A DNA stretch of 64,000 nucleotides from Catajapyx aquilonaris (taxonomy: Eukaryota): positions 1-64,000 of the forward strand of contig KZ538098.1 in assembly GCA_000934665.2 (NCBI GenBank). The letters run 5' to 3'. Position 1 is the first letter of the stretch. The number at the start of each line of letters is the position of its first letter. The notes beneath the pieces were generated by a model. That model was not told the origin of the DNA. It saw nothing but the letters and a program-made list of their open reading frames with translations, and made no database searches. Below, piece after piece: positions 2,535 to 47,905 of the stretch. A program made the position numbers and the translations under genes.

Positions 2535-5073
2535 ATGGCTTCTGCCAAGTTTCCTGTTGCTGGGATTGATTTGGGCACCTCCGAGTCCAGAATTGCAGTG
2601 TGGAAGGATGGAAAGGTCCAGATGGTTCCAGACCTTTACACAGGGCAATCGTCCATCCCGAGTTATGTCTCGTTCACTGAGGGGCATGTTTTAACTGGAG
2701 AGTTGGCTAAACAACAGGTCAGCACTATGATCTTGTTTCATTTAGCAGAGTAACTGAAACACTAAGTTGTTCGTAATATTTTTCAACCAGCTTTACTATT
2801 GTCATTTGGTTTTCTTACAGATGGCTACCAACCCGAAGAACACTGTGTTCGAAGTGAAGCGCCTGATTGGTCGAGGATACGACGGATCCATTCCACCAAT
2901 CGGAAGATTTGGCTGGCCTTTTCAAGTACTGCCGTTCACTAGTGGTAAAGCCCGTATTGCAGTCATGGGAAGCAATAACATGATCACGTATTATCCGGAC
3001 AACATCATGTATCGTATACTGGAGGTAATGCTGATGAATACAAAGCAATTGCTACCTCTCGGCGTGACCCAAGCAGTAATGACGGTTCCAGCTTATTTCA
3101 AAGAGTTTCAAAGAAAGCAAGCGACGAGTGAAGTGGCAGACATGGCCAAGATCAGACTTATTCGAGTCATCGACAGCTGCACGGCTGCTGCTCTTGCCTA
3201 CTCTCACAAGAAGGGCCTGAAGACTGCAACTCATGTGCTGATCTATGACATGGGCACTTACGCATTCCAAGCCTCGGTGATGAAAGTGAACGACTTTCAT
3301 GTTGAGACGATTGTAAGCGAGACCAACGCTTTTCTGGGAGGCAAAAACTTGGACCGAAGTCTGATGTTATGCTGCTTGAATGAGATCATGAGGATTCAGA
3401 AGCTGGATTTGAGGAATGACCTCCAGGCACGAACTAAGCTCTATTCGGCGTGTGAAGAAGCCAAAAAAATGCTATCCACCCAGAATGAGGTCACTATACG
3501 AGTTGATAAACTTTCAAAGAATTTGAACTTCACCTGCAAGGTGGGCCGTGTTCAGTAATTGAAGGGATGGAATGCAAGAAGTTTCATCTACAAAAATCCC
3601 TTTCGGCTGTTTAAAGATTTCAACAAACTAGAAGGGTATGATATTCCTCTACTTTTTGCTTTCAACCCCTTCAATTACTGTGTTTACATAAAATAATACA
3701 AGGTAACTTCTTGTGCATAGTCATATTCGAATTTCCATTTTCCACTTACCTGTGCATCCTGTTTTCTCTTTACGACAGATTTCTCGGCAACTTTTTGAAG
3801 ACTTTGCCATTATTAGCATGGTAAATAGCACTTTGGATCTTGTGGCACGTGCACTGTCGAAAGCAGGAATAAATAGAAGCCAAATAAAGGATGTTGTCCT
3901 GGTCGGAGGATCTACACGCATTCCAAAGCTGAGAGATATGGTAAAGGAATTCTTCAACTTGCAAGAGCTGGACCAGTGCGTGGATCCGGAGGATGTACTG
4001 GTCTATGGCGCTACTGTACAAGGTGCTCTTTTAAACAACGACATAAAAAGCAACAGTACGAGCAGCACAAAGAAAAAAGTTTCTCCCAACCCATTTGGAG
4101 AGTACAGGTACACCACGGGTAGAACAAATACCTCAAAAAAGAGAAGTAGCCAGTTTCCACTAGCTGCTGGTTTGAAAAGTTCTGATTTAAGTGGAAAGGA
4201 CATGAATCAAAGGGTAAATCGCAATATCGAATTTCTTTCTACCCAATCAGAGGTCATGAAAGGTAAATCACATGCCCAAGACCTATTTCAAAAAATATCC
4301 CAGCATGATTATAACATGTCCTTAGTCACAGAAGGGCAGAAAGGTGCAGCTGGTGCACCACCCGGCCTCTTTGGAAAGTCTGGAACCCAGCGCTTTACGA
4401 GAAATAATACAAGCGAACCCCGAAATTGGTTTCTGAGTGCTCCAGTGGTTGTCAGCTTGAGCGGAGCTATTTTGCAAATTTCAAAGAGAAAATGGATATC
4501 GCATTCTAACGCAAAGTCTAAAGGAAAGATGGTTAGAATCATAGTCCCTGTAAGTAACATACTTTTTTATTTTTTATGACACAAGATTTCATCCGGAATC
4601 TCCAATATTTCATACTTACTTTAATTTAGTTCCAGGAAGGGATTACCTACAGTGATTCTGGCCGTAGTATTGAAATATCATTAAATGTCAACTCGGACGG
4701 AATTATTCACGCGAAAGCAGTCAAAACATTACCTGGACTGAGCAACAACACAGGAACCAGGAACAAAGACGATCTAAGGAACACCGATTTGTTAGAAATG
4801 AAGAAGGAAGCAGAACAGTTCCGCAAAAAGGAAGCAATGAAGATGGAAAAAGAAGACGCAAAAAGAGAATTGATTAGCAGGGCATACTCATTTAAAAAGG
4901 AGGTGGAATCAGGACACTATTACAAAAAATTATCCCAAAGTGATAAACAGCAAGTGAAGGATGAGTTCAATAAAGCTTTGAATTTTTTTGAGGAAAATGA
5001 ACAGGCCGAACCAAGCACACTTGAGAATGTGATGGAGAAATTGGAGCAAAATATTCGTCGTTTTTCGGTCTGA
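2535..5073 (+). CDS. Divergent HSP70-like gene G2; exons 2535-2717, 2821-3540, 3779-4549, 4630-5073
   Basis: Motifs [40 protein letters not shown] and C-terminal 'IEISLNVNSDGII...AKRELISRAY'. Three phase-0 GT-AG introns keep the frame. Confidence 0.85.
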
Positions 5074-5918: not shown

Positions 5919-8561
5919 TTAATACATGAGTTTATAAATTAATGGTTGGATCCTCGTCTTGAAATCCCTCAACAGAACTTCGTAGGTGTTTTTTTCTGCC
6001 GGTCCTATCTCGTCTATAATGTCCAGCATTTGGTAGCACGCGTTCTCCAGCCATTCCTCCTCATCTTCAGAGATCTTGCCTTCCCATGTATCTGCAACCA
6101 CATTCTTCAATTCGTACACAAAGTTCTCCAGGTCGGTCTTGGCAAGGTCTCTCTCCCGTCTAATTAATTCGTTCCGCCTTAATTCCTTCAGTTCTTCCTT
6201 CATTACTGACAGCTCCGTTTCCTTCTGCTCATCTGCTTGATTATTACCGGCGACAATGAAATTCCGCTGACCCGTGACTATTTTGGTGTAATCTGAGACG
6301 TCAGTAATTCCGTTGGCATCGACGCTGACAATCACTTCTCTATGATGATTTGAATTATTGCTGTAAATCACTTTCTCTATACTTCTTCCCTGAAACTGCA
6401 ACAAAACACAATATCAAAATTTGTGAGTCAAACTTAATCTTCTTGGGCTAAAATTAATTTAGTCATCGTACATAATATGATTACTTTTTTTTCCAAGGAG
6501 TGCTGCACAAAACAACCAAAGGTATGTAGGCTTATACACTTGGTAACAGATAGATATTTACTTACGGGCATAGACATGATGGCACATTTTCTTCCCATAT
6601 TTTCACACCGAATATACTTGGGAATTGATTTTTCCTTGAAAATGCTCACAATTCCTCTAGTGTACGTCATATCAAAGGTTAAATCGACTTCTTCGTCCTG
6701 ACTGCTTCTACCTGGAGACAGCTCTTCCACATGGTGCTCATTTCCTTGTTCCGTAATTTTGTCAAAATTTGTCACTTTGCTTCTGTTCCTTTTGAGCTTC
6801 CGTGTGTCCGAGATGACATCATTTTGTGTAGGTTCGTTTAAAACGGGACCAGAAAAACGGTACTGATGCATATCATTACCTTTGTCCCTGATATGTTCGT
6901 AAGAGGCTACTCTTTTGGGACGTTGTTTGACCTTTTGTTCAGGTATGTGTCCTGATCTGGTCGTCAGGTCATCATAGGACATACTGTAATCAAACGATTG
7001 CTTTTCTTTTCGACGAGTGCTTTTAACACTGTTGTGGTTATGAAAGCCATTTTGACTGCCAGATGAATCTTCCCTTTTGATCTTAGGCTTACTTCCCTGA
7101 GCAGATTTCATGCATTTCTGTGTCACACCGTTTGACGTAACTGTTTCGCTTTGAGCAAACCTGACCTCCTTAGGTTTATTGATGTGAATTGGCCTGATAC
7201 CCTCAACTGTGCTCTCTTGTTGTATGCTCTCGTTCAGAAGAGCACCTGCAATTGCAGCTCCATAAACAACAGCTTCCTGCGGGTCGACACACTGGTCCAG
7301 CTCTTCTCTCTCGAAGTGATCCCTCACCATCTCCCTCAATTTTGGTATTCGGGTTGATCCCCCCACAAGAATCACGTGATTTATATGAAATTTTTTGATC
7401 CGGGCTTTTTCCAGAGTACTTTCCACGATGTTGAGCGTGTCCTTGATGAAGCCTGTGTACAGCCCTTCGAATTTTTGTCGCGAAATCTGCGGGAAATAAT
7501 AACCAATTAGTAGTCTACAGTTCAACTCAAATTCAGCGAAAATTTATGTTATTTTTTTCAACATGGTTGAACTTTACCAGTCTAATACTGTACCTTACGA
7601 GTGAAGCTAAAATCATTGCATAGACAATCAACTCTAATTGTTGCCTCATATCTCTCGGACAGTGTCTTTTTGGCTTCTTCACATGCAAGTAAAAGCTTCC
7701 ATTGTGCTTCGAAATCATTTCTCAAGTCTATTTTGTGGCATCGCCAAATCGCGCTCAAACAGTAAGACAACAAGCACAGGTCGATGTCACTACTTCCAAG
7801 GTTTTTATCGAAATCCGTCGCAACAATTTTAGGGTCGAAGTTCTGCACATCCAGCACTGACACTTGGAGCACATATTTGCCCAATTCGTACACCAGCACG
7901 AGACCCGCGTCCTTCAGATTCTTTTCGCAACAATAGGCAAGTGCAGCAGCCATGCAATTGTCGATCACATGAAGCACATTTATTTTGGCTATCTCCGCAA
8001 TGTCTATTGTTGCTTGCTGTCGTTGGGCCTCGTTGAAGTAAGTCGGGACTGTCATCACCGCTTGGGTCACCTGGTGATCCAAAAATTCGTGGGCATTTTT
8101 TAGCATTCGCTTCAACACGTATGATAAAATGCGTTCTGGGTAATACTCTCGAGGCGCCCCATTTTTCTCCACTTGAATGTGAGCTTTTCCACCGCTAACT
8201 GACACTTCAAATGGCCAGTAAAACTGGTCAGTCGGCGGAAGAGAGCCGTGGTCACTTCGTCCGATCAGACGCTTCACATCGAAGACTATGTTCATCAGGT
8301 TGGTTCCCGTCTGTAACTAAGGTAAAAATGTTTCAGTATTTTTAAACCAGTTTTATCTATAGAGATAGGTCTAACCTGCCTTTTGGCGTATTCTCCGACG
8401 TACGTTTTCTTCCCGATGAATGTGACGTAACTGAGCGTAAAAAGCTTTCCTTCTGCGTAATAGTTGGGTATGATCTCTACTTTTCCATCTCTACACACAG
8501 CCATTCGTGACTCGGAAGTGCCTAGATCTATACCCACAACAGGCGGTCTTGTATTGTCCAT
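5919..8561 (-). CDS. Divergent HSP70-like gene G3; exons 8561-8376, 8310-7594, 7486-6566, 6395-5919
   Basis: Motifs [43 protein letters not shown], 'VSVDANGIT', 'AKTDLENFVY'. Phase-0 GT-AG introns at the same positions as in G2. Confidence 0.85.
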
Positions 8562-8697
8562 TTCCGAGCCACAGTTTATTCCTTATTAGTCACTTCCTTA
8601 TCTTTATTTGCTGCCTCTTTATTTTAAATCTGAAACGAAATTTTTTTGTCTACAGTTCCATTACAGAGCCTATTTTGTGAAAAGCTCTAGTCTATCC

Positions 8698-8698
<1 letters not shown>

Positions 8699-8772
<74 letters not shown>
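8699..8772. repeat. (TAT)n microsatellite
   Basis: About 24 perfect TAT units. Confidence 0.95.
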
Positions 8773-9466: not shown

Positions 9467-11300
9467 CTACTCATCGTCACTTATGTTGTATGATTGTCTG
9501 TAGACGTGAAGGTTTTCTATCTGTTCCCTTAATCGGTGGTCATGTGGTGTCGATTCCTTTCCTTTTGCTCGGAATAGTCGTACACCGCAAGTGTTGGGCT
9601 CCTTCATCTCCGCCTGATTGTTCTGATGGAATTGCTTTGCGTCATCGCATTGACAATCCGGTCCGCAGGATGCTGAGGAACTCTTGGGATCTTCCAATTC
9701 GACAACCGGTTTCTAAAAAGCAGATTTGCTGATATTTCTGTCTAATTTTTCTGACTATTGTTGTGCCTACCTGAAGGCGTACGTCATCCTCAATCGAGTG
9801 TTTAGTACTAACATCCACTTCAATAACAGGATGAAGAGAGACGGCTTGCATAGCAGCTCCAGTCACAACTGTTTCTTCAGGACGGGCATTGTTGCAAATA
9901 GCTTTGCCTTTGAAGAAAGCCTTCACCATGGCCTGTATTCTGGGGATGCGAGTGGAACCCCCAACCAAAACCACGTCGTCAATATCACTCTTGTCCACAC
10001 TGGCATCGCAGAGAGCTTTTTCCACAAAGTGCACGGTCCTTTGGAAAAGGTCCAGGCACAGAGAATCTAACCGGATTCGTGTCAACTGCAAAGTAAGTTG
10101 TAAAACTTAGACCGGTCTAATGCATATTGATGGTGCATCGTATACCTTGAGGCACAAGTCGATTCCGTCGCATATGTTGTCAACGACGATTGGCGCCTCA
10201 ATAGAGCTGGCGAGTGTTTTCTTGGCTTTCTCGCAGACTAGTCGCAGTCGATCCATTGCCATTTGATGCCCTGTGATGTCCACATTATGCTTGTTCTTCA
10301 ACCATCTGACGTAAAAGTCAGCTACACGATTATCAAAGTCTCTTCCTCCCAGGTGAGCGTCGCCACAGGTGGACATGACCTTGAAGGTCAGGTTTGTGAT
10401 AGTCAGCACTGTGACGTCAAACGTGCTTCTTCCGAGATCGTACACCAACACGTTTCTCTCTCCAGTCGACTTCTTTTCCAATCCGTAGGCAATGGCTGCT
10501 GAAGTTGGTTCGTTGATCAATCTGATCCCTGTGAAGCCAGCGATCTGTCCCGCGTCTTTGGTCGCCTGTCTTTGGGCGTCGTTGAAATACGCCGGTACCG
10601 TCACCACTGCGTCGGTCACCTTTGTCTTCAGAGCAGATTCGGCTCTTGCTTTCAAATTGGCCAAAATCATTGCACTAATTTGCTCAGGGTAAAACCGCTC
10701 CTTCTCTCCGTGCTGCTGGACTTCAATGGAAGGTTTACCAGCATCGTTCACAACAGGAAAACTCCAGGACTTCAGGCTCCTCTGGACTTCTGGATGGTCA
10801 TAAGTACGGCCAATCAAGCGCTTCATGTCGTAAACAGTATTCTCAGGTGTTATCACCATCTGAAAAAATGTACAGTAGGCTCCAGGGTTATCCGCAGAAA
10901 ATATTTTAAATAAATAATCATAAATATAATACTTACATTTTAATATCCAGCATGAGGTGTTTTAATTGCAATATAGTAGCCTACTCTTTTCTCATTGACA
11001 TCCTTTATTATTGTTTTTTATTGTTTTGGTTGATATGTGCATATGCATTATTTGTGTACTAACCTACACCATAGCATAGGTGTGTACAGTAAAGTACTAA
11101 TACACTGTACATGAGAAATTAGTTCTTGCCTGCTGCTCAGCGGGGTCTCCAACAAGCCGTCCTCTGTCAGTGAAAGCGACGCAATTAAGGGTAGAAAGGT
11201 CCCCATGCTCGTTATAGAGGACCTTGACATGACCTTCGTGCCACACTGCCAGTCGAGAAGTTGTGGTTCCCAAGTCAATTCCAATCGCCTTCCGGTCCAT
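9467..11300 (-). CDS. NBD-only HSP70-like gene G4; exons 11300-11130, 10859-10146, 10085-9771, 9712-9467
   Basis: Motifs [45 protein letters not shown]. No SBD follows; the last exon is a short unrelated tail and is less certain. Intron 1 donor is GC (CAG|GCAAGA). Confidence 0.75.
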
Positions 11301-12576: not shown

Positions 12577-14475
12577 TCAGTCCACGTAAATCTGAAACAA
12601 AATTTTACGGTGTCAAGATGCATATTGTAATGTCACATACTGTGCAATTAATAGTACCTCAATTTCTTTTTCTTGGTCGTATCCCAAGTACGAGTCAGAC
12701 TTCAAACAAGCTTTGTACAGGTAACCTCCCGGAATGAACGGCAGGGTTATCGTGAATAACACTCTGGCATAATCCCTCAAATCATTCACAAACTGAGGTC
12801 CTTTCACCAATCTTAGACACCATATGTCACACAGGTACAACCACCAACCTTCCTCCCTTTCCTGCAATTAAAGGAAAGATCTGTAAATTGTCATAATTAT
12901 TCAAGCAAAAGCTGGTGCTCACATATGCAAAATCTGACATTAACTAACCTGCGTAATTAATGGGCAGTGCACATTTATATCCGTCTGTGGATCTGCTGGC
13001 TCATAACCATGACCAAACTTTGAGTTCAGCATGTTTCTTCGCGTTAATATCACAGTGACGTCTATGAAGAGTAGGTTTTCTTCACGTGAATCTGTAACTA
13101 CAGAGTTACATTTAAAAAATTGGCCTTGGAAATATAGTTAAGTTTTCACACGTCGTAATGATTACCTCGCGTGAGGACATGCATTTCAACAAGAGGCATC
13201 TTCTGACACATTTTCATCGCTGTCCAGTACTCATCTTCGTTGAGATTTCGCAAAATGTCCCTCCTTTTGCGATCCTCCGAATGTGCAAACTTTTCCAGGC
13301 TTTCGACTCGATTCCGATTGATGCCAAACTGGTCCAGCACCCCGTCATTCACATGTGGAAGCTGCAACAATGAGTTCTGACCCTTCCATAGTCCCTGAAC
13401 CAACATTGGACTCAGGTCCATGCACCTGACCAGATTGTCCAAATCATGTCCCCCTCTGCGATTCGCCATTTCGGTCGCAACTTTCACCAATACAGGAACC
13501 AACTCCAGGCACTTCTGAATCACAAATCGAACGTCCTCTACATTACTGGACGATTCCAATTGATGCAAATAAGCCATGATTATCGATTTGGCCTTCAGCT
13601 GGCAAAAATCCATGCCTCTGTCCATATCGCCAAAATAATAGACGAATCTTTTGGTTATTCGTGCGACCATCTCTCTGTCTCCTCGTCGTTCGCAAATTTC
13701 GTCGTTTTGCTTCGAGTCGAACTCAACAGACCATGCCAATATGGTCACCACTTCTGTATGGTTCGTCATGTGAGATTCGCTCAGCTTTAGCTTGTAACAA
13801 TCTTGAGTTCCTTTGCGAATTTTAGCCTGAAATAATTCATAAAGTATTAGAAACGCAATTTTTAAAAAATTGTCGCCATTTCTTCCTGCAAGGCCGTACC
13901 TGTCTCTCAGGATATCGAAGCGATTTGTAATGCCTGTGAGCCAGCCATGGAAGGCCAGCGAGCAACAAAACGACGCACAGTATCAGTACCTTTGGATGGT
14001 AAATTAAATTATTAAAAAGTCAACTTTATGGTGGTTTGAACAACTCACATTTAGAGAGTTGAGTACCTTGCCCGTTTTGAAAGTGGGGTCATTCACGTCC
14101 GCATTTATTTCCGTGGAAGTGACATACACCAACAATAGGTACAGCATCCACACAGTAGATAAGCTTAAACAAAATTGTTGTAATACAAAAAAAATCGTCC
14201 GGTTACATAACGCACTGACATAGAGACTCACATTGCATATCTGATGTGTAATTCATTCTGCTGAGATTGAGTGGCCTTGACTTTTGACAGGCAACCATTG
14301 CAGCTGCAGCGCTCACTTCCGGCTGGTTCTGAAGGTCACAACCATTAAAACGCAGTCACTAATACATGTCAATTGTACTTATTGGCTCACCTTTTCGTTT
14401 AATTCGCGGCCAGACCAGGTAGGTCGCCGGTATGATGAAAACCGTAAAGATAGACGTCAGGAACAAGAGGAGCAT
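12577..14475 (-). CDS. SEC63-like protein lacking the J-domain; exons ~14475-14391, 14328-14232, 14163-14067, 13989-13900, 13826-13166, 13091-12949, 12861-~12658, 12591-12577
   Basis: Hand translation gives 'FEFDTYGDMLLLFLTSIFTVFIIPATYLVWPR' (SEC63 TM1), CSCNGC, TM2, TM3 'LPWLAHRHYKSLRY', 'ILAWSVEFD', 'LSPMLVQGLW..NSLLQLPH', 'EEGWWLYLCD' and 'LKSDSYLGYDQ'. All introns are GT-AG with compatible phases. The start codon is uncertain: homology extends upstream of the first in-frame ATG. Confidence 0.8.
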
Positions 14476-27837: not shown

Positions 27838-30800
27838 TCAGTAGACATCATCTTCTAAGGAACTCTTGGCTGAGGGATGAGCTTCTCTGAGTCTCTCCTC
27901 TTCTAATTTCATCCGCTCAAACTCTTTGTCACTGAATCTTGCTATTGAATTAGTTATGGATATGGTTCTCTTCAGCTGGCATTTGGTTTCGATTGCGGTG
28001 ACGTTTAGGATTCCATTCTCGTCAACTTCAAAAGTAACACTGAGTTCTCTTGATCTCACGGGGACTGTAAGATTAAATGAAACGAGAAGATTGTTGCACT
28101 CTCTCTGGACGTTTTCCAACTCATAGACCTGTAAAAAAATACAGTTATCACCAAACATGAACAGGGATAGTCACTAGAGACCGGATGATCTGCAGTTATG
28201 ACTCATGATGCATATTATGCAATGAATATTACTCACACGTATAGGAATTACGGTTTGCTCGTTCTTATCAAGCGTGAACAAGCTGGATGTTTTACATGGG
28301 ACTCTCGTGTTTTTCTCCAGCATTACTTTCATTTTGTGTGTCCCTACTTCTATCCCTAGAGACATGGGAATCACATCATGCAGCACCACTTCATTTATGA
28401 GGTGACCTTTGTGGTCACCATGAAGGACAGCGGCGTGTATGGCTGCCCCGATGGCCACCGCTTCCTCAGGATGGACATTCTTGCAGAGATCCTTGTTGTT
28501 GAAGAACTCCTTCACCTTGGCCTGTACTTTAGGTATGCGAGTGGAACCGCCAACTAACACCACGTCGTCAACGTCTCTTCTGTCAATTTTGGCATCTGAC
28601 AGCGCTTGTTGCACGATCTCCAAGGTTTTTCTGATGAGGTCGCTGCAAAAGTGGTCGAAACGGTATCTTGACAACTGAAACGGCGGTAATGTATAAGTTG
28701 CAGCAAGATTATTAAATTGTGCACAAAATTCTAACCTGGTGATGCAAGTCTACTCCGTCACAAATATTGTCAACAATGACATCTGTCACCGTCTTGTTGG
28801 AGAGAACTTTCTTGGCCTCCTCGCAGGCCACTCTCAGTCGCTGCAAGGCCCTGTGGTTCCCTGTTATGTCCATCTTGTGCTTCACCTTCAAATGATCGAC
28901 GTAGAAGTCCACCATTCCGTTGTCAATGTCTCTTCCTCCCAGATGAGTGTCGCCGCATGTAGATCTGACAGCGAAGGTCAGGTTTTTGATGGTCATCACT
29001 GTTACATCGAAGGTTCCTCCTCCGAGGTCGTAAACCAGAACATTGGTCTCTTTTTGAGCCTTGTTTTGTAGCCCATAAGCAATGGCTGCAGCTGTTGGCT
29101 CGTTTATTATTCGGAGGACGTTCAGACCAGCGATACGACCAGCGTCTTTGGTCGCTTGTCTTTGGGCGTCGTTGAAATATGCCGGCACCGTCACAACTGC
29201 GTCAGTCACCTTTGTCTTCAACCGTGCTTCGGCTGTCTCCTTCAAATTGGCCAGGACCATTGAACTAATCTGCTCAGGGTAAAACTGTTTCCTCTGCTTT
29301 TGGTACTCGACTTCTACAAGTAGTTTATCGGAGTTTTCTACGACTTTGAAGCACCAATTTTCCATGTCTCTCTGAATGTCGGAGTTGGCAAACTTACGAC
29401 CAATCAGGCGTTTACAATCAAAGATGGTGTTCTGTGGAGTCATTAGCATCTGAAAGTATTGTACAAATATGTTAAGAGGAATGTCAGATGATCAAGAAAA
29501 CATGTAAGGTTAGTCAGTGTCATCTGACTCTGTAAACAAACATGTGGGCATCCATCCTCGTAGCTTACTTGTTGCTTGGCAGGATCACCTACAAGCCTTT
29601 CGTCTTCTGTAAATGACACGTAACTTGGTGTCACTCGATTTCCATGATCATTGAACAATATATTGACACGATCTTTCTCCCATACAGCTATGCATGAACA
29701 CGTGGTGCCCAAATCTATGCCCACCGCTGGGCCTGGTCCTCTCATGTCACTTGTCAAATTTGATCCATTTTTTTGCATGTCATCTTCTTCCTCCTCCTGA
29801 TAAACAAATAAGTAATTAATTATTTTATTAAATATTCCGTGTGTTTATACTTACCTTGTCGTTGTTGATACTGCTGGTTTGATTTGAGGACTGGTCATCT
29901 TGAATATGTTGAGCCTCTGTACTAACACTTTCCTCTATGATCCTCCTGTCGGAGGTGCAGGTGATATGTAATTGTTCTAGTGGTGTCTCGATTAGGGATC
30001 GATGTATGTCATCGTCATCTTCAGCATCTTCTTCGGGGATGACGAAGGACATTCTGAACGCGTGACGCTCGTCGCCCGGTACTCTGTGTATGCTCTTGGG
30101 TTTATTACGGGTTTCTGAACCGTCTGGTTTGACCTCTGAACTGTCACTGGTTTGGTTTTTGTCCTGTTCATGTGCATCAACCCGGCTGCTAATGTTCCTC
30201 GGTGTAATTGTAGCCATGTCCTCTATTCGTATGTTTTTATTCAGTAAAGCACCTTGAACAGCCGCGCCATACACAACTGCTTCCTCAGGCTCGATGGTGT
30301 AGTCCAGCTCTTCCAATTTGAAGAAATCCTTCACCACCTGCCTCAGTTTGGGTATTCGGGTGGAACCACCAACCAGGACCACGTGCTCTATTTGACTCTT
30401 GTTTAATTTGGCCTTAGATAATGCACGTTCTATTACCGACAGCGTGGAATTGATCGGGTATCCGCATAATTCTTCAAATTTTTGTCGAGAAATCTGTGGC
30501 AATGAGAGAGATTAGGTTCTTTCTAAATGAAATTAACACATCTAAAACACACATGTGTAAATTAATAAAAATTGCTCACAATGGTAATCTCAACTTTGTT
30601 GAAGTATTGCATACCTTGCAAGTGAAATTGTAGTCCGTGTGAAGATTAGGCACATGTACTGTGGCTTCATTTTCTGTGGACAGTGACTTCTTGGCTTCCT
30701 CGCAGACTGGATAGAGCTTCAACAATGCTTCGATGTCACTTCTCAATTCTAGCTTTTGATTACGCAAAATCTCATTCAAGCAATGTGAGACCATGAGTTG

Positions 30801-31739
30801 ATCAAAGTCTCTCCCTCCCAACATCTTACGACTCTCGCTGCAAACAACACTCGGTTTAAGGTCCTTCACATTCAGTACTGACACTTGGAATGAGTATGTG
30901 CCCATGTTGTACACCAGCAAGTTGTTTACGTCTTTCAGCTTTTTTCCATAGCAGTAGGCAAGAGTAGCAGCAATGCAGTCGTCGATGACATGGAGGAGGT
31001 TGACTCTGGCAATTTCGGCGACACGACTTGTTGCCCGTTGTCGTTGGGCCTCCGTGAAATACGTGGGGACAGTCATTACTACATGGGTCACTGTAAGACC
31101 CAAAATTTTCTGGGCATTGTCCAACAGCCTTTCCAGCATCCAGGACATGAAGGTTTCTGGATAATACGTTTGCTTTTCTTTCTCTTTCTCAATCACAATC
31201 TGAGCTCTTCCTGCAGTACGTGAAACTGTAAACGGCCAGTAATTCCTCGTTGTTGGTTGAAGTGAACCATCACTCGTCTTTCCAATTAATTGCTTCACAT
31301 CAAACACTGTGTTCTTCAGATTCTTGCTCATCTGCAAGAGCATTGCGCATTTTATTTTATTTATATTATAGTTACTTACTACATACTGTAATCCTTTAAG
31401 GTACCGGCATAAAAAGCTGACGACGTATATAGGGAGATGAAATAATATGAAAATAAACATGCGACTAGAACTTAAATCGGCGTTATGTAACTGAACATTA
31501 ACGGTGGAATAGCATGAACTACTGTAGTTGTGCATTTTGTAATAAATAATTCTTACCTGTTTTTTGGCTTGATCTCCGAAGTATGTTTCCCCATCGGTGA
31601 AACACACGTAACTGGGTATGAACGACTTCTTTCCCTGTTGGTCAGGAATAACCTCGATTTCTCCATCCTTCCACACCGCAATTCTGCATTCGGATGTTCC
31701 CAAGTCGATCCCAGCAGCAGGTAATTTTGCAGAAGCCAT
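27838..31739 (-). CDS. Double-NBD HSP70-like gene G5 (~1,069 aa); exons 31739-31557, 31331-30615, 30493-29855, 29796-29569, 29449-28736, 28674-28237, 28128-27838
   Basis: Two complete NBD motif sets joined in frame by a 58 bp phase-0 GT-AG intron (29854-29797). The second module has [24 protein letters not shown] and an SBD. The lid helices continue in another frame to 27668 (frameshift). Confidence 0.8.
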
Positions 31740-33049
31740 TTCGCACTTAATGAGTGTTGGTGTCTTTAACTGATAATAACCCTATAAAATACACTCTGAC
31801 AAAACCTAGAAGTATCAAAAAGGTGCCTGTTTCCAAACATTTGCTTGTATCAGTCGTAGAAAATGTGCGGATTTTGCGAGTCGAAAGTTCTTGTTATCTG
31901 TGCCATATCTTCAAGTGTCTACCAAAAAATAAACTAATGAAAGGAAAAGTGTCAGCCACAGACAATATCTCAGAAATTGTGCAAGAATTTGAGCGCACCT
32001 GCTACTCCTGAAATGGCTTGACGTAGACTAACCTTGATCTCTGTTGCATGATATGCCCTAGCTGACGCAATCGGGCGACTTTTTGATTGCATTATCACTG
32101 GATAACAATAGGCACTCTCATAGGTCCTATAGTGAATGATCAAAGCTACGGTACCGATAGAGCTTTCTTTATTCAAATGTTTGAGGGAACTTTTTCATAC
32201 CTGTAAATTGACTTTTTTCAAAATTGTCTCTCTGATGTAAGTGCACAGTATAAAGTACCTGGTTTAAAATTTAATCGTCATCTGAAAGGCAAAGTAACAG
32301 CAATGACACCGTATATTTTTAGAGGCGTCGGTTTCAATTTTTTCATAATTCAATTTTTGAATGTATTTCAGGGATGTGTCAAAAATTAATAATGTGTGAT
32401 GTTTTCGCAGATGCAGCAGTCAAGATAATATTCCTAATTCGTTTGATGCATAATACATCCTTCTTCATGCACTGCTACCTTGTTATCACAGTTAATCTTA
32501 AGTGTGTTAGTGATTAGATAACTATAAGGAATGGTAATTCTCACTACTGATAAGCAATGCTGTACTATTATTATTATGGGAGATTATTTAGTAGGTCTCC
32601 TACAGTAAATGATGATCGATTACAAGTGAAAAAAAGCCAGAATGTAAAGATAAAACACACAGTTTTCCTCCATGATTTCATATTGCATGTTTTGTCTTTA
32701 TCAAACAAGTCAGCCAAAATAAGTTTACATGGTTTAAGTGAACTTCATCCTGAACAGGACAGGGCAAAAAATGAATTAGTGAAATGAAAAGAAATTAATG
32801 ATTTTAATGACTAGTTTCACCAGTAATTATAAAAATATTATGAAAAATGCCCCTGTAAATAAAAGCATGTATAATATTAAATAAGATATTTTGCACATTA
32901 AAAAGCAATAGAACCAGAATGCTGCCCGTCCGAAATATGTTTTGGCATAGAGTACTTTATTATCGTCATTCAATACATGGAGACGATCACTGCCGTCTGC
33001 TGTATACAGTAAATTATACCACTTCCAATACTTCAGCCCCAGATTTTTT

Positions 33050-36000
33050 TCACTTCTTCTGATTGATATTGGACCATTCCTTTTTCAAATTTTCAAGTTC
33101 TTCCTCAAACCGATCTTTGCTTGCAGTTTCGTCTTCCTCGATCCATTCCAAGAGAGTCTTGCACTTTCTCATCATCACTCGCTTTTGTTCTTCTGATATT
33201 CCGTTTCCAGTGCTTTCTAAGTCATCTTTGACAGAGTAAACGTAACTTTCCAATTTACTTTTTGCTGTAACCTGATCCTTCTTGATTCTCTCCTGTTGTT
33301 TGAGCCTATCTTCTTCCCTCTTCATCTCGTCTAGCTCCTCATGACTGAATCGTCCTCTTGAGTTTGTGACAGTTATGCTCTTCCCTTTACCATATGTGGT
33401 TTCGACTGCAGTGACACTTAGAATTCCATCCTCGTCTACTTCAAAAGTAACGTTGAATTTGGCCTCTCCAGCTGGTCTCAAAGGAAATCCGGTCAATGTA
33501 AATGAATCCAAGAGGTTGTTTTTCTCCACCTCTTCATTTTCTCCTTCAAACACCTAGAGAAAGAAACATCCAGCATTTACGCTACAGTGAAATAAAATCT
33601 TGTCAGGAACCATCTATGATTGTACAAAATTAATTTATGTATAATTATTAGTTAGTAACCTACCTGGCCAGAAAAATGTAGTCTACTCTTCCACAGTAAG
33701 GACAAATTTTAATAATATTAATAAAATAAAAATTATGCAATACTGACACGTATAGAGATTTTGCGCTGGTTGTTTCGCGTTGTGCTGAATAATCTGGACA
33801 TGCTGCAGGGTTTTCTGGTATTTTTTGGCAAAATCACGCTCATTTTATGTCCTTCCACCTCCAACCCAAGTGACATTGGTATGACGTCCTCCAGCACCAC
33901 CTCGTTTATTCGATGACCCTCGTGGTCTTTGTGAAGAGCGGCGGCATGTACAGCAGCACCGTTGGCCACTGCTTCTTCCGGATTGACATTCTGACACAGC
34001 TCCTTGTCGTCGAAAAACTCTCGGACCATCTCCTGTACGCTGGGGATGCGAGTACAGCCTCCAACCAAAACCACGTCTTCGATGTCATCCTTGCTCAGCT
34101 TGGCGTCGGTCAGAGCCTGCTGCACAATATCCAAAGTCTTTTTGAAAAGGTCATCGCAAAGGTCGTCGAACTTGTGCTTTGATATCTGAAAAAATATCCA
34201 TGTCAGGAGGACAAACAGAATATTGAGAATGTCGTACCTTGTGTGTCAAATCTATTCCATCGCATATGTTGTCTACAATAACGTGTGTCTCCAGCTTCTT
34301 GGACAGAGTGTGTTTGGCATCCTCGCAGGCCATCCGTAGTCTGTGCATGGCTTTGTGGTTCCCTGTGATGTCCTTGTTGTGCCTCCTCTTCAACAAATCG
34401 ACGTAGAAATCCACCATTCGGTTGTCAAAGTCTCTCCCTCCCAGGTGGGTGTCACCGTAGGTTGATCTGACAGTAAAGGTCAAGCCATTGACTGTCAGCA
34501 CTGTGACGTCAAATGTTCCTCCTCCGAGGTCGTACACCAACACGTTTCTATCTTCTGTCGCATTGTTTTCCAATCCATAAGCAATGGCTGCTGCTGTAGG
34601 TTCGTTGATTATCCGGAGTACGTTCAGACCAGCGATTTTCCCTGCGTCTTTGGTCGCTTGTCTCTGAGCGTCGTTGAAGTATGCAGGTACTGTCACCACT
34701 GCGTCGGTCACCTTTGTCATCAGGATCGTCTCAGCTGTCTCCTTCAAATTGGCCAGGACCATCGAACTTATCTGCTCAGGGTAAAACCTCTTCTTCTCCT
34801 CCTGGTAATCGACCTCAATACGGGGTTTTCCGGCGTTGTTAACCACTTGGAAACCCCATGACATCATGCTTCTTTGAACCTCTTTCTCCTCATACTTTCG
34901 TCCAATCAATCGCTTTGAATCAAACACTGTGTTCTTAGGTGAGATCGCCATCTGCAACATAAAGAAGACAATGCACACTAAGAGGTTTCCTTATACCCTG
35001 GCTTGCACAACTAACCTGTTGTTTGGCTGCGTCTCCAACCAGCCTCTGATGTTCAGTGAAGGCGACGTAACTCGGAGTCACTCTATTCCCATGATCGTTG
35101 AATAATATCTTAACACTGCCATCCTTCCACACAGCGATGCAGGAACAAGTGGTGCCCAAATCTATGCCCACAGCTGGTCCTCTCTCTGACATTATATTGC
35201 TCGTTTCATTCGGCCCATCTTGTCGCTCCTCATTTCTCTGAATGGTGTCATCTTCGCCACGGTCCATACTGTTAATCAATTGCCCATTGTCGAAGTTGCA
35301 GTCTTCATAAAACTGATGCGTGTCACTGTCTGTCGAGTCATTATCATCAGAATCGAATAAAATGCTGTACGTATGGACCGCTTCAAAACTTGGACGTTTA
35401 CTCCTCCGCAGAATCTGTTCAAATTCATCGTCTTCCTTGGCTTCTGAGATCCACTCTTCTGGCTCCTTTTCTTCGCACTTCTCGTTGGAACCACTTTCTT
35501 CTGTACTGTTGCACTCTGTATCCTTGCATAAAAGAGAGGCTTTCACAGTAGCTCCATACACCACTGTTTCCTCTGGTTCAATGCTATGGTCCAGCTCTTC
35601 CATATCGAAGAATTTTTTTACCATAGATCTCAGCTTTGGTATTCGAGTCGAGCCACCCACCATAACCAAGTGCTTTATTTGATCTACTTTTACTCCTGCT
35701 TTTAGCAGAACGCGTGCTGTTATCCTCAAAGAGGCGCTAATTAGATCCGTGCACATATCTTCAAACTGCTCTCGAGATACCTGTAGCAAAGAAGCATAAA
35801 AAATAAGTCATTAATGCGCAAAGGAACATACAACGTATCCTATACCTTGCAGGTAAAATTGTAGTCCCGAAGAAGGTTGTCGATGCTTATAGTTGCATTA
35901 TCTTGAAACGACAGTGTTTTCTTGGCTTCCTCGCAAGCTGCATAGAGCTTGGAGAGAGCTTCTACGTTCCTCACGTCCATCATACGACACCTTAGAATCT

Positions 36001-36810
36001 CATTGATGCAGTGCGACACTAGATGCTGATCGAAATTCCTTCCACCCAGCATGTTTAAGCACTCCTTATGAACTGTCTTAAAATTTAAGTCCACACTTAT
36101 CACTGAGGCCACAAACACATACGTGCCCATGTCATACACAAGAACATAGCCGTCTTTAATGTTATTTTTGTGGCAGTAAGCAAGGGCGGCAGCGGTGCAA
36201 TTGTCTATCACACTTATGAGAGTGATTTTGGCCTTGTCCGCAATGTCTTTCGTCGCCTGCTTTTGTTGAGCATCGGTGAAATAACTGGGCACGGTCATTA
36301 CAGCCTGCTTAACCTCAAGGTTCCAGACCATCTTGGCATAATTGAGCATTCTCTTCAGCACAATGAACATGACACGTTCAGGGCAATACTTCCCGTAGTT
36401 CTCCAGTTCAATCTCAGCCTTTCCTGTATCATACGTCACTTTGAACGGCCATTGAGACATGTTACTCTTCGTCAGGGATCCTTCGTCACATCGACCAATC
36501 AGACGCTTCATGTCGAACACAAAGTTCTTTGGGCACACACCCATCTGTATCCAAATACGGTTAGAATAATTATTATGTCAATCCGAAATCATCGAAATAA
36601 AAATTGCGTTGAAATAATTCTAACCTCCTTTTTAGCGGAATCGCCGACATGTACGAACTTCTCCGCAAAAAAAACACAGCTGGGCATGAAATTCTTCCCT
36701 CCTCTGCAAAAACTGTGAATGAGTTCGACCTTCCCTTCCTTCCAGACTGCAATTCTGGACTCGGATGTTCCAAGGTCGATCCCAAACACAGGAGTGCTCG
36801 CAGATGCCAT
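33050..36810 (-). CDS. Double-NBD HSP70-like gene G6 (1,101 aa by exon sum); exons 36810-36625, 36544-35846, 35780-35016, 34951-34238, 34185-33748, 33553-33050
   Basis: Exon 35780-35016 runs without interruption from the end of NBD1 ([11 protein letters not shown]) through an acidic linker into GIDLGTT of NBD2. All exon lengths are multiples of 3. SBD and lid are present; there is no EEVD. Confidence 0.9.
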
Positions 36811-37734
36811 TTCAAATGCAGGTGATCGACGGTTTTTTTGCTATTAGAAAGTGTCACATACTCTGGAAAAAAAATTGTACACAATAATTTTGTAATATAA
36901 ACTAGTACAGATTTTTATCTAGAAATAAGTACCGGTATTCTAAATTTTTATAAAAATGATAGACTATACAGCATTGCACAATAATTGTGGCAAATTGTCA
37001 ACGAATTGAAACCATATTTATTCTATTATGCTCCATGTTAAGTACAACTCACTTGACATTATCATATCGGCCGGATAGCATAAGCCGATAATAAGCAATG
37101 AGTAATATTCCCAGCTTATTTCCTAGCTCCAGGATTGGCTCAGTTGACTTACCTCTCAAGTAAAAAGGCCTTCACCTGTAATACACATGCTTCGGAGACG
37201 TTACACTGAGATGATTGACTGTCACTGGACATGCTTTGCCGTTTCAATAACTTAGGTCAGTCCAGAAGCACTTGCTGCTTCATCGTATGCTTGATGGAGA
37301 ATACTTTCTTCATGAACCTGTTATCTTGTTGCTATAGCAATCAGGTGTGGGCAAAGAGATTATATCCAGCATTTGATAATGAACTTGACATATGATTTTC
37401 ATAACACATCTTTCGTCATACATGCGCCGTTTTGTGATTCGGATCTAATGTTCATATATTGGTGTAAACAAATGTGTGTTACATTGCAGTAAAACGGATA
37501 ATACGAGAAAAATTGCAAAAGAAGAAGTTCCAAAACCAGGCAAGTGCCTCCATCTTGCTTGGCACTTGCCTCGTTCTGACCCGTTGCATGAGTAGCATGA
37601 GTGATCTCTGAAAATTTTAGGTATCGATATACTTTCGAAATGGAGGTTCGTAGGACAGTCACGATTTCAGTACAACTTGGTACAACTTCAGGGTGGAATT
37701 TGCTGCAGAAAAACAAAGAAAAGTGATTTTCCGC

Positions 37735-43050: not shown

Positions 43051-43158
43051 GGGTAGAATTTTCTTCCCGCTGCTAGTTACTGCTAACTTATCAGTACCAT
43101 TGCCAACACTAGTGCTGCTAAGGTAGCAGTAACTATCAGTGGGAGGAAAATTCTACCC
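43051..43158. mobile_element. 108 bp palindromic mini-MITE inserted in the 3' coding region of G7
   Basis: TIRs GGGTAGAATTTTC / GAAAATTCTACCC, with a 3 bp duplication AAT on both sides. Confidence 0.85.
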
Positions 43159-45112
43159 AATATTTCGAAATCGTCCTCTTTTTTTCCTGTGACGTCCTGG
43201 GTATCGCACCTGCCAAAGAGTCCCGAGTCTGTCTCTACACTGCCATCATCTCCCTGCCCTTCTGTCAAGTCTAAAGACAGTCTACCCAGCATGTTACTTT
43301 CATGATGGAAGAGAATCTGAAATGGATTCTCATCATGTGATTTACCTTCCGTGGTCTCTTGTTTGTCAGAAACAAATTCGCTATTGAAACGTGGCCTTTG
43401 ATTCATGTCCTTTCCACCCAAATCAGAACTTCTCTTTTTTGTATTACTTTTTCTAGTTCTGCTATGCTTGTGGTTGTGCAGTACATGCTGAACTTTTTTC
43501 TTTGTACATCTCGTATTGTTGTTTTTTGGGCTATTGTTTAAAAGAGCACCTTGTACAGCCGCTCCATAGACTAGCGCTTCCTCTGGTTCTATGCACTGGT
43601 CCAGCTCTTGCAGGTTGAAGAAATCTTTCACCATTTCTCTTAACAATGGAATGCGTGTAGATCCACCAACCATGACCACGTGCTCTGTTTTACTTTTCTC
43701 CATTGCGGCCCTCGAGAGTGCACGTGCCACTAGATCCAAAGTCCTTCTGATTATGCTAGTGACCATCTGTTCAAAATCTTGCCGAGAAACCTGTCACAGA
43801 AAAAACAATACCCACACGTTAATCGCAATAAAATTTGAATGTGGCGATGCACAAGAAGCTGCTTTGAATTTGTATAAATTCAGTAATTGAATGGGTTAAA
43901 AGCAAAAAGCAGGGGGACATTATACGTACAACTCTTCATTAAAATTATTGTGAAAATCAGAGAGAAAGAAAGAAAATGAAACAAACAGAAATATCAAAAT
44001 ATGAATTTTTTGCATTCCATCCCCATCAATTACTGAACTGATAACAAAGCCTACCTTGCAGATGAAGTTGATATTTTTAGAAAGGTTATAAACTTGTATT
44101 GTTGCCTCATTATGGGTTGACAGTATTTTTTTTGCTTCCTCACAGGCCAAGTACAGCTTAGTCAGTGCTTCCATATTATTTGTGAAATCCAGCTTATAAA
44201 TATTCTTGATCTCATTCAAGCAGTACAACACCAGATATCGGTCCAAGTTCTTCCCTCCCAACATAAGGTCAGTTTGGCTTGCAATTGTCTCAACATGAAA
44301 GTGTTTCACTTTCATCACCGAGACTTGGAAAACATACGTGCCCATGTCGTAGACCAGCACATGAGTTGCAGTCTTCAGGCCCTTCCTGTGAGAGTAGGCA
44401 AGAGCAGCGGCAGTGCAGCTGTCGATGACTCGAATAAGTCTGATCTTGGCCATGTCTGCCACTTCACTCGTCGCTTGCTTTCTTTGAAACTCGTTGAAAT
44501 AAGCCGGAACCGTCATTACCGCTTGGGTCACACCCACTGGTAGCAATTGCTTTGCATTATTCAGCATTACTTCTAGCATACGGTACATGATGTCGTCCGG
44601 ATAATACTTCATCATGTTGCCGCTAATTGTGATTACAATGCGTGCTTTACCGAATGTTAACGGCAGTACTTGAAAAGGCCAGACCACTCTTCTAAATGTT
44701 GGTGGAATTGATCCGTCGTGTCCTCGACCAATCAGACATTTCACTTCAAACACAGTGTTCTTCAAATTGGTAGATATCTAGAAGAAAACCACACAGGTCA
44801 GAATTTGTAGGACGCCTTGCATTATGTGATAATTTTTACTACGATTGGTACGGAGGACATAAATATAGCTGGTTGTACAGTATTGCTAAAAATTAAGAAC
44901 ATCTTAGTAGTCAACCTGACCTGTTGTTTAGCCAACTCTCCAGTTAAAACGTACCCCTCAGTGAAGGAGACATAACTCGGGATGAAAGTCTCTCCCGTGT
45001 ATGGGTCTGGAACAATCTGGGCCTTTCCATCCTTCCACACTGCAATTCTGGACTCGGAAGTGCCCAAATCGATCCCAGCAACAGGATACTTCACAGAAGC
45101 CAGTTGCAACAT
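43083..45112 (-). CDS. HSP70-like gene G7, a paralog of G2, NBD-only with hydrophobic C-terminus; exons 45112-44921, 44777-44055, 43790-43083
   Basis: Long stretches identical to G2 ([31 protein letters not shown]). Phase-0 introns. The ORF stops inside the MITE. Confidence 0.8.
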
Positions 45113-47265: not shown

Positions 47266-47905
47266 TACGAGATGTGATCAAAAAGTTTCTGGACTGTCGA
47301 TATACCGTCAAATCCAGTGGAGGTACGAACTTGTGACGTTAGGGGGCGCTAGGTACACCTTTCATCTATTAGTCTGAAAAATGTCGTCTTCATTGGTGCA
47401 CATGTTTCCGAGTTTCGGCAGTTTTCTTGACACCGTGTTCTTGTGCTTCTGCGATTTTTCGAAATCGCTTATGTTAGGGAGCAAAAGATTTGTAAAATTT
47501 TGCTTCCAGCTCAACAAAACTTCGGATGCAACCAACCGAATGCTGAACAAGGCTTTTGATGAGCAAGTTGTAAGACAAGCAATAACATATATGAGTGGGT
47601 TAACAGCTTCGAAGGTGGCGCGTCAAGTTTGCAGCAAAATCAACTCAATGCTGATCATTTTCTTTGACATTTTAGGAATTATGCGTATGGAGTTTCTCCC
47701 TCCTGGTAAAACTGTCAACGGCAAGTATTAGGGCCTACTGGGATGGTTTGAGACGATTGAGGCTCAAATGGCCGGAGATGTGGAAGAACACTGGTTGCTG
47801 CACCATGACAATGCCGCCTGCACACACCTCACGCGTAGTCAGGGACTTCCTGATAAAAAATAACATGACCACTGTTCCCCACCCTGCATATTCGTTTGCC
47901 CTGGC
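47266..47905 (+). mobile_element. Degenerate mariner-family transposon, internally deleted
   Basis: TIR-like TACGAGATGTGATCAAAAAGT. Transposase remnants 'VKFCFQLNKT..AF', 'MLIIFFDILG..EFLPPGKTVNGKY', 'HDNA', 'VPHPAYSFALA' (compare YSPDLAP), with stops and frameshifts. Confidence 0.85.

Follow-up and report, generated by a model that had tools for sequence, protein, structure and literature searches.

The nucleotide cycle of HSP70 chaperones is set by separate partners, which include J-proteins as well as the exchange factors Hsp110 and GRP170, and to our knowledge every characterised HSP70 carries a single nucleotide-binding domain (NBD). Hsp110/Sse1 and GRP170 have HSP70-type NBDs themselves; these bind ATP with hardly any hydrolysis, and their target is the NBD of an active HSP70. 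Other non-cycling or truncated relatives, namely Ssz1/HSPA14 and HSPA13/STCH, serve as partners or consist of an NBD only, and they are likewise separate proteins of ancient families. Here, we describe gene F, a predicted HSP70 gene with two NBDs, which is located on the minus strand (36810-33050) of a 64,000-nucleotide stretch of DNA from Catajapyx aquilonaris (contig KZ538098.1, positions 1 to 64,000; the whole stretch is referred to as the window). The window has a G+C content of about 42% and short GT..AG introns of the eukaryotic kind. The NBD1 half of the gene is termed F1 and the NBD2 half F2. We consider gene F a genuine fused gene, in which a pseudo-NBD is tethered ahead of a working HSP70, and give this reading a probability of roughly 0.55.

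Exon structure and active sites of gene F

Gene F consists of six exons, its introns all have GT..AG borders and lie in phase 0, and the spliced open reading frame (ORF) encodes 1,101 amino acids (aa). The exon coordinates, the product length and the motifs quoted in an earlier prediction from the sequence (hereafter the original prediction) were all correct when the gene model was re-read. Exon 1 (36625-36810), which adjoins its donor GT, holds the start codon and NBD1 residues 1-62 with the phosphate-1 loop and matches positions 1-53 of the Pfam HSP70 profile. Exon 2 (35846-36544) encodes NBD1 residues 63-295 including the motifs VIDNCTAA and VYDMGTYVF, matches Pfam with an E-value of 6.5e-46 and aligns with residues 61-293 of bovine Hsc70. 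The core of NBD2 is encoded by exon 4 (34238-34951; 315 bits to the Hsc70 NBD), followed by exon 5 (33748-34185; profile positions 292-436) with the NBD2 end, the interdomain linker and the start of the beta part of the substrate-binding domain (SBD-beta). Exon 6 (33050-33553; profile positions 436-596) completes SBD-beta and adds the lid and the stop codon (33052-33050).

The two modules meet within exon 3, a single ORF that spans the NBD1 end, a linker and the NBD2 start in one frame, so that the fusion is independent of any splice guess, as had been claimed. The first 84 codons (35529-35780) align with chain positions 314-397 of 3kvg, i.e., with the C-terminal section of an HSP70 NBD of known structure; the middle (35193-35528) encodes an acidic linker of 109-112 aa without a match to any HSP70 in the PDB; and the end (35016-35192) opens with an internal Met (ATG 35192-35190) followed by the NBD2 N-terminus, which aligns with the N-termini of solved HSP70 NBDs. 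In residues of the exon, 1-84 correspond to an NBD end and 194-255 to an NBD start, with no match for 85-193. The Pfam scan that had been suggested as a check for two NBDs returned a PF00012 match in each of the six exons (37.6-313 bits at a cut-off of 20.6) and two separate stretches in exon 3. SBD and lid, in turn, are present only once, and the C-terminus (...NINQKK) is devoid of EEVD; gene F thereby departs from the canonical cytosolic layout of one NBD, SBD-beta, lid and C-terminal EEVD. Intron positions are identical in both modules, a pattern that a gene of four exons would leave behind when duplicated in tandem.

The linker itself has the character of coding sequence. Its 109 codons at 35202-35528 contain no in-frame stop, a state retained in only 8 of 20,000 mononucleotide shuffles; another frame holds 14 stops, the coding log-likelihood is highest in the used frame, and the encoded segment has a net charge of -23. 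Between F1 and NBD2 we found neither a stop codon nor a lid exon belonging to NBD1, and no polyadenylation signal; the sole AATAAA in exon 3 sits inside the NBD1 coding part, before GGSTRIP. Consequently, any NBD1 mRNA that is translated must continue through NBD2, the only exception being a message that terminates with no stop codon.

The active sites of the two heads were compared at eight positions in bovine Hsc70 numbering (K71, E175, D199, G201-G203, T204 and D206). NBD2 reads KEDGGGTD and is fully canonical, including the motifs GIDLGTT, IINEPT and DLGGGT. NBD1 reads KNDGTYVV: K71 and D199 are kept, and the five changes E175N, G202T, G203Y, T204V and D206V depart from the set of a working ATPase, which bears out the predicted contrast between altered and canonical catalytic motifs. 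In its first exon, which aligns with Hsc70 residues 4-57, D10 and T13 are kept next to T14S and Y15E. The best PDB matches of NBD1 exon 2 include the T204V and D206S mutants, which were made for hydrolysis studies. Judged by these residues, NBD1 lacks those needed for hydrolysis and NBD2 is canonical; NBD1 would bind nucleotide without hydrolysing it.

The NBD1-like paralogue family

The window represents a cluster of atypical HSP70 genes, with at least nine HSP70-type genes in 64 kb. Five copies are NBD1-like (F1, A, B, C1 and D), and a sixth gene, Z, is cut by the window start. These copies are 50-52% identical to NBD1, and all five share the motifs TSE[SC]R, VID.C.AA.LAY and Y.[ML]G[TK]Y; at the position of D199, three of them retain Asp, while B has E and C has N. 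For phylogenetic placement, a tree of 69 rows was used, comprising eight window rows, the domains of 18 chosen multi-domain proteins and chosen single-domain proteins out of 327 collected proteins, the others of which were left out. Here, the NBD1-like copies form one clade with a long stem and a support of 100 in the Shimodaira-Hasegawa-like approximate likelihood-ratio test (SH-aLRT), and the NBD2-like copies F2, C2 and E form a second one.

Compared with its four paralogues, F1 shows a non-synonymous divergence (pN) of 0.28-0.31 and a synonymous divergence (pS) of 0.68-0.76, and the younger pair A-D has a dN/dS of 0.31; for the five-copy family, dN/dS is about 0.2. The terminal branch of F1 (0.58) is similar to those of the paralogues (0.52-0.53), and its splice sites are intact. 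Since pN of about 0.3 is far below pS of about 0.7 between copies, NBD1 is, as far as sequence comparison can tell, a member of a maintained family of pseudo-ATPases and not a decayed copy of NBD2. The original prediction of a "degenerate ATPase domain" consequently holds with regard to the changed hydrolysis residues; the domain is, however, not simply degenerate, but belongs to a conserved family with fixed motifs and five copies. Within the searches described below, this family is private to the lineage.

A hidden Markov model (HMM) of the last exon (SBD-beta end and lid), built from the window, recognised such an exon in no genes other than A, B, Z, F2 and C2, and in this window-wide scan F1 and C1 had no lid exon of their own. 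In A, B and Z, the NBD is followed by 170-540 aa without a family match and then by a last exon homologous to the SBD-beta end and lid of HSP70.

Transcripts, a second pair and competing explanations

Part of the locus is present in one sequencing run (X1), whose kind is not on record and of which 19 of 85,611 records were aligned; a search of the runs listed none recorded as RNA that contains the locus. X1 behaves as cDNA, because its contigs skip introns at GT..AG borders, and the contigs match both halves of F at 0-4 differences. On NBD1 exon 2, a contig at 35879-36107 agrees over 229 nucleotides (nt) with 0 differences; it lies wholly inside one exon and by itself shows no splicing. On the NBD2 side, one contig covers 34518-34954 on exon 4 and another joins exons 5 and 6 at 33551/33746, which equals the model joint 33553/33748 when shifted two places to the right. 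The contig on exon 6 ends at 32938, and an AATAAA signal can be read past the stop codon at 32956-32961 (minus strand). Exons from both halves of F are apparently transcribed. On indirect grounds, we infer a putative single mRNA carrying both NBDs, because NBD1 is conserved, apparently transcribed and without a stop, a lid exon or a plausible 3' end ahead of NBD2.

The window contains a second candidate of this kind, pair C, on the minus strand at 27838-31739 (exons 31739-31557, 31331-30615, 30493-29855, 29796-29569, 29449-28736, 28674-28237 and 28128-27838; 1,069 aa). All its introns have GT..AG borders and lie in phase 0, and C1 (31739-29855) is directly followed by C2 in the same order as in F. 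The joining intron (29854-29797) is 58 nt long, with GTAAGT..AG borders and phase 0 on both sides, so that the halves are in frame; its length is typical, the other introns measuring 52-194 nt. Three introns of pair C downstream of the join are visible in X1 contigs. One further X1 contig links 27964 in the last exon of C2 to 33398 in the last exon of F2 via 20 foreign letters, and is probably a chimera of paralogue transcripts.

Several observations weigh against a fused gene or against its proposed role. Among the aligned X1 records listed, no cover was seen over 35073-35774 (linker exon) or over 36126-36827, which takes in exon 1 plus the 5' portion of exon 2, nor any RNA across the NBD1-NBD2 junction. 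The internal Met of F opens a textbook HSP70 N-terminus, which could serve a separate transcript. If retained, the joining intron of pair C brings in a TAA stop that AATAAA overlaps, and a TATAAA is found within it as well, which fits two separate genes. Moreover, the lid exon of C2 carries a one-base frame change near 27841, leading to a stop at 27840-27838, with the remaining lid readable in another frame. This is probably no assembly error, because an X1 contig (27612-28126) is colinear without gaps over the frameshift; pair C may thus be decaying. Between F and C, pS amounts to 0.72 for the NBD1 halves and 0.54 for the NBD2 halves, and a single duplication of a fused unit would predict equal values, barring gene conversion of NBD2 or codon bias. 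Neither F1 and C1 nor F2 and C2 are resolved as sisters in the tree. No alignment could be obtained between the F and C linkers, whose score was equalled by 228 of 500 shuffles, and directly ahead of NBD2 their similarity lacks significance, with 79 of 1,000 shuffles scoring as high; in weak favour of the fusion, F and C agree over the 21 codons ahead of NBD2 at 14, 13 and 6 of the 21 first, second and third positions, respectively. Finally, NBD1 may bind no nucleotide at all, because G202T and G203Y place bulky residues in the phosphate-2 loop.

The alternative that survives best is that of two separate genes standing back to back, one for a pseudo-HSP70 reduced to an NBD and one for an ordinary HSP70 driven by a promoter of its own, with the intervening open frame unused. 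The upstream transcript would then end or splice elsewhere, and the 1,101-aa protein would never be abundant. We regard this explanation as unlikely, but as a serious contender: the standard HSP70 start at the internal Met, the signals within the joining intron of C and the unequal pS of the halves would all be in line with it, and merged tandem HSP70 models are common in databases. In fact, many "double HSP70s" there are two canonical copies that look like merged tandem genes, e.g., P0007 (Salvia), P0010 (Citrus) and P0176-P0179. Like F, these are predicted proteins of 800-1,200 aa with two HSP70 NBD matches; their modules, however, are both canonical and near-identical, as is typical when a gene finder merges recent neighbouring duplicates, whereas those of F are 37% identical and share one exon. 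Separate genes are also hard to reconcile with an NBD1 that has no stop, lid exon or polyadenylation signal before NBD2, with a linker frame that only 8 of 20,000 shuffles keep open, and with purifying selection on an NBD1 to which a cDNA-like contig maps.

That the chimera is real but has no function appears improbable. In this scenario, the upstream paralogue lost its 3' end to a deletion, a read-through mRNA arose, and NBD1 is a decaying passenger without a regulatory role. The lid frameshift of pair C could be taken as such a sign of decay, no motif above shuffles is shared between the linkers of F and C or by these linkers with the tails of A, B and D, and database searches gave no close relatives that would show conservation of the fusion across species. 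F1, however, is saturated in synonymous change against every paralogue and yet retains a frame of about 490 codons, its splice sites and the family motifs, on a branch no longer than those of the paralogues. An assembly artefact, in which two paralogues of this dense cluster were misjoined at the linker, is highly improbable, as the modules are only about 37% identical, the window contains no N and the junction no repeat (which makes a collapsed duplicate unlikely), the linker is unique sequence with coding character, a second pair shows the same order, and X1 contigs agree with both halves.

The fused gene that we favour would have arisen when two neighbouring, long-diverged HSP70 paralogues were joined head to tail. 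The upstream partner would come from the lineage-private NBD1-like family, with its ATPase site remodelled in a fixed way (TSESR at the phosphate-1 loop, E175 replaced, GGGT to GTYV), and would have lost its own last exon and stop codon, so that its disordered tail reads into exon 1 of a complete, canonical HSP70 without EEVD. The predicted product consists of the pseudo-ATPase NBD1, an acidic flexible tether of about 110 aa, and NBD2, SBD and lid. An internal promoter that also yields a plain HSP70 of 610 aa would be compatible with the fusion. Gene F is probably a real, uncharacterised HSP70 variant. If so, it would offer a natural model of NBD-NBD regulation in cis, with a conserved, hydrolysis-dead head tied to a working HSP70, and would illustrate how paralogues that act in trans can become domains within a gene cluster; free and fused forms stand side by side in the cluster for direct comparison. 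If no fused mRNA exists, the finding shrinks to a family of HSP70 paralogues with an atypical NBD and a disordered tail, which would be of modest interest.

The surrounding cluster, database relatives and known HSP70 systems

Among the stand-alone NBD1-like paralogues, Z (3-2125, plus strand, cut by the window start) comprises an NBD, a tail and a lid exon, A (2535-5070, plus strand) an NBD, a disordered tail and the lid exon 4630-5070, and B (5922-8561, minus strand) an NBD, a tail of about 260 aa and the lid exon 6413-5922. This layout of NBD, acidic or disordered stretch and lid loosely recalls Hsp110. Paralogue D (43086-45103, minus strand) consists of an NBD and a tail that ends in a hydrophobic stretch, and no lid exon was found for it in the window; its last-exon ORF (43086-43200, minus strand) carries the hydrophobic run ...IFLPLIVTATLAALVLAMVLIS just ahead of the stop, which resembles a tail anchor. 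The NBD2-like copy E (9645-11288, minus strand) has no recognisable SBD and a GGG loop changed to GRS; it reads DLGRSTFD where DLGGGTFD is usual and is possibly a truncated gene or pseudogene. E and B were considered as a reversed fusion and rejected, because they lie about 1.1 kb apart and the interval contains stops as well as a repeat of Asn codons. This repeat is a run of about 25 N (ORF 9076-8690, minus strand; window positions 8690-8770) and represents a trinucleotide microsatellite. Perfect three-unit heat-shock elements, searched with the consensus, are absent from the 64 kb, where about 0.9 would be expected by chance. Apart from the HSP70 genes, positions 47378-47728 (plus strand) weakly match part of a mariner-type transposase domain, at 22.9 bits and thus under the cut-off of 24, and an ORF at 13149-13982 (minus strand) matches the Sec63 Brl domain with 28.6 bits.

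Neither word-based nor exhaustive profile searches found close relatives of the NBD1-like family or orthologues of the fusion. NBD1 exon 2 returned 55 proteins with a top identity of 36% and no close relative, exon 6 returned two proteins with a top identity of 44%, and for exon 3 only P0014 among the 120 proteins listed covers more than 37% of the query. The top single-domain matches of the exhaustive profile search (about 200 bits) were ordinary Hsc70s, and the ESM Atlas yielded generic HSP70 clusters only. Of the best 150 profile matches, 31 had at least two matched stretches, and an NBD-core HMM matched at least twice in 46 of the 327 collected proteins. Most of these 46 are twin canonical copies and likely merged gene models. 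A degenerate first and a canonical second module were found in six of them (P0005, P0014, P0180, P0181, P0184 and P0315), and in six further proteins from rushes and sedges the second module is near-canonical.

P0014 and P0180 are proteins from Logan contigs, and P0184 is an annotated protein of the amphipod Trinorchestia longiramus (KAF2354849.1). Like gene F, these three unverified predictions of 1,021-1,055 aa combine a degenerate NBD, a linker of about 60-100 aa and a canonical NBD-SBD-lid unit; unlike F, which reads KNDGTYVV, their active-site strings are KEHGGETS, MDHGGHTS and -RRGANHE. P0014 and P0180 can be aligned colinearly along about 1,017 aa with 45% identity, and both place a degenerate NBD1 before a canonical HSP70; going by this pair of predicted proteins, the architecture is viable elsewhere. 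None of the database domains included in the tree groups with the NBD1-like or NBD2-like clades of the window, the deep forks being unresolved, and the modules of F thus show no common descent with those of P0014 and P0180 in this tree. F and P0014/P0180/P0184 are therefore probably separate in origin, and the double-NBD architecture seems to have arisen more than once.

A further group of double HSP70s of about 1,000-1,220 aa occurs in rushes and sedges, namely P0181, P0183 and P0186 (Juncus effusus), P0192 (Carex rostrata), P0013 and P0015 (Rhynchospora) and P0226. K71 and E175 are missing from their first module, whereas their second is near-canonical, and both modules are complete in the four proteins examined. 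In the tree, the domains of P0181, P0183, P0186 and P0226 cluster by position and not by protein, which suggests that this plant group holds a conserved double-HSP70 family.

It is a doubtful, though attractive, extension that pseudo-NBD-HSP70 tandems form a recurrent, convergent class of chaperones, with the dead head, tethered to a live one, as a built-in Hsp110/GRP170-like exchange factor or governor of the cycle, and that the window shows the birth of such a tandem in a cluster. The free A, B and Z with their lids would then act in trans on neighbouring NBD2-like HSP70s, and the fused F and C in cis; P0014/P0180, the amphipod protein and the double HSP70s of sedges and rushes would be parallel cases.

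Full-text literature searches retrieved no description of an HSP70 with two NBDs. In the available parts of a study on the oyster HSP70 family (PMC11268181), no comparable architecture appears, and the portion available of a sea bass study, again without a comparable architecture, notes a pair of Hsp70 domains solely for an Hspa12 gene (PMC8945262). The original prediction that the architecture is uncharacterised is therefore upheld as far as the literature is concerned, yet it is not unique, considering the other predicted double-NBD HSP70s in databases and pair C within the window; all in all, it seems uncharacterised rather than singular.

The nearest comparison within the cluster is with A, B, Z and D, which share with NBD1 of F the clade, the altered motifs, the intron positions and a long disordered tail after the NBD. 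A, B and Z close with their own lid exon, whereas F1 and C1 instead run into a complete HSP70. By sequence, NBD1 is nearer to Hsc70 than to Hsp110/GRP170: with exon 2 as query, 107 PDB sequences matched at E <= 1e-20, and the best 60 of them comprise Hsc70/Hsp70 isoforms, yeast Ssb1 and an unnamed protein, thus Hsp70-type proteins throughout, with no Hsp110 chain among these 60; the tree was built without Hsp110.

A resemblance in individual traits is nevertheless evident. According to the accessible part of a preprint on GRP170 and BiP, GRP170 is a pseudo-ATPase relative of HSP70 whose phosphate contacts include S42-E43-S44, and cytosolic Hsp110 has another residue in place of the Glu that pairs with the catalytic Lys (10.1101/2025.10.25.684324). 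As far as that part of the preprint goes, NBD1 is like GRP170 in having S-E-S at the same phosphate loop and like Hsp110 in that the Glu pairing with the catalytic Lys is replaced (N at 175). Unlike nearly all GRP170 homologues, however, NBD1 has kept the Lys itself. These shared traits are a resemblance and not a test. Acidic disordered insertions are likewise common to Hsp110/GRP170 and gene F. Hsp110 and GRP170, however, stand as polypeptides of their own that include an SBD-beta and grip the partner with a long lid, whereas NBD1 has neither SBD-beta nor extended lid, is followed by the linker only, and is covalently tethered to its putative partner.

By analogy with these exchange factors, the tethered NBD1 could open or hold the nucleotide cleft of NBD2 in cis, as Hsp110 and GRP170 do in trans, or otherwise set the HSP70 cycle; such regulation in the manner of Hsp110/GRP170 is a tentative proposal, which we consider rather unlikely at present. 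The original prediction had suggested that NBD1 may be an exchange factor built into the protein, a regulator or a decoy. A comparable arrangement is found in the JAKs, in which a pseudokinase and a kinase are joined in tandem.

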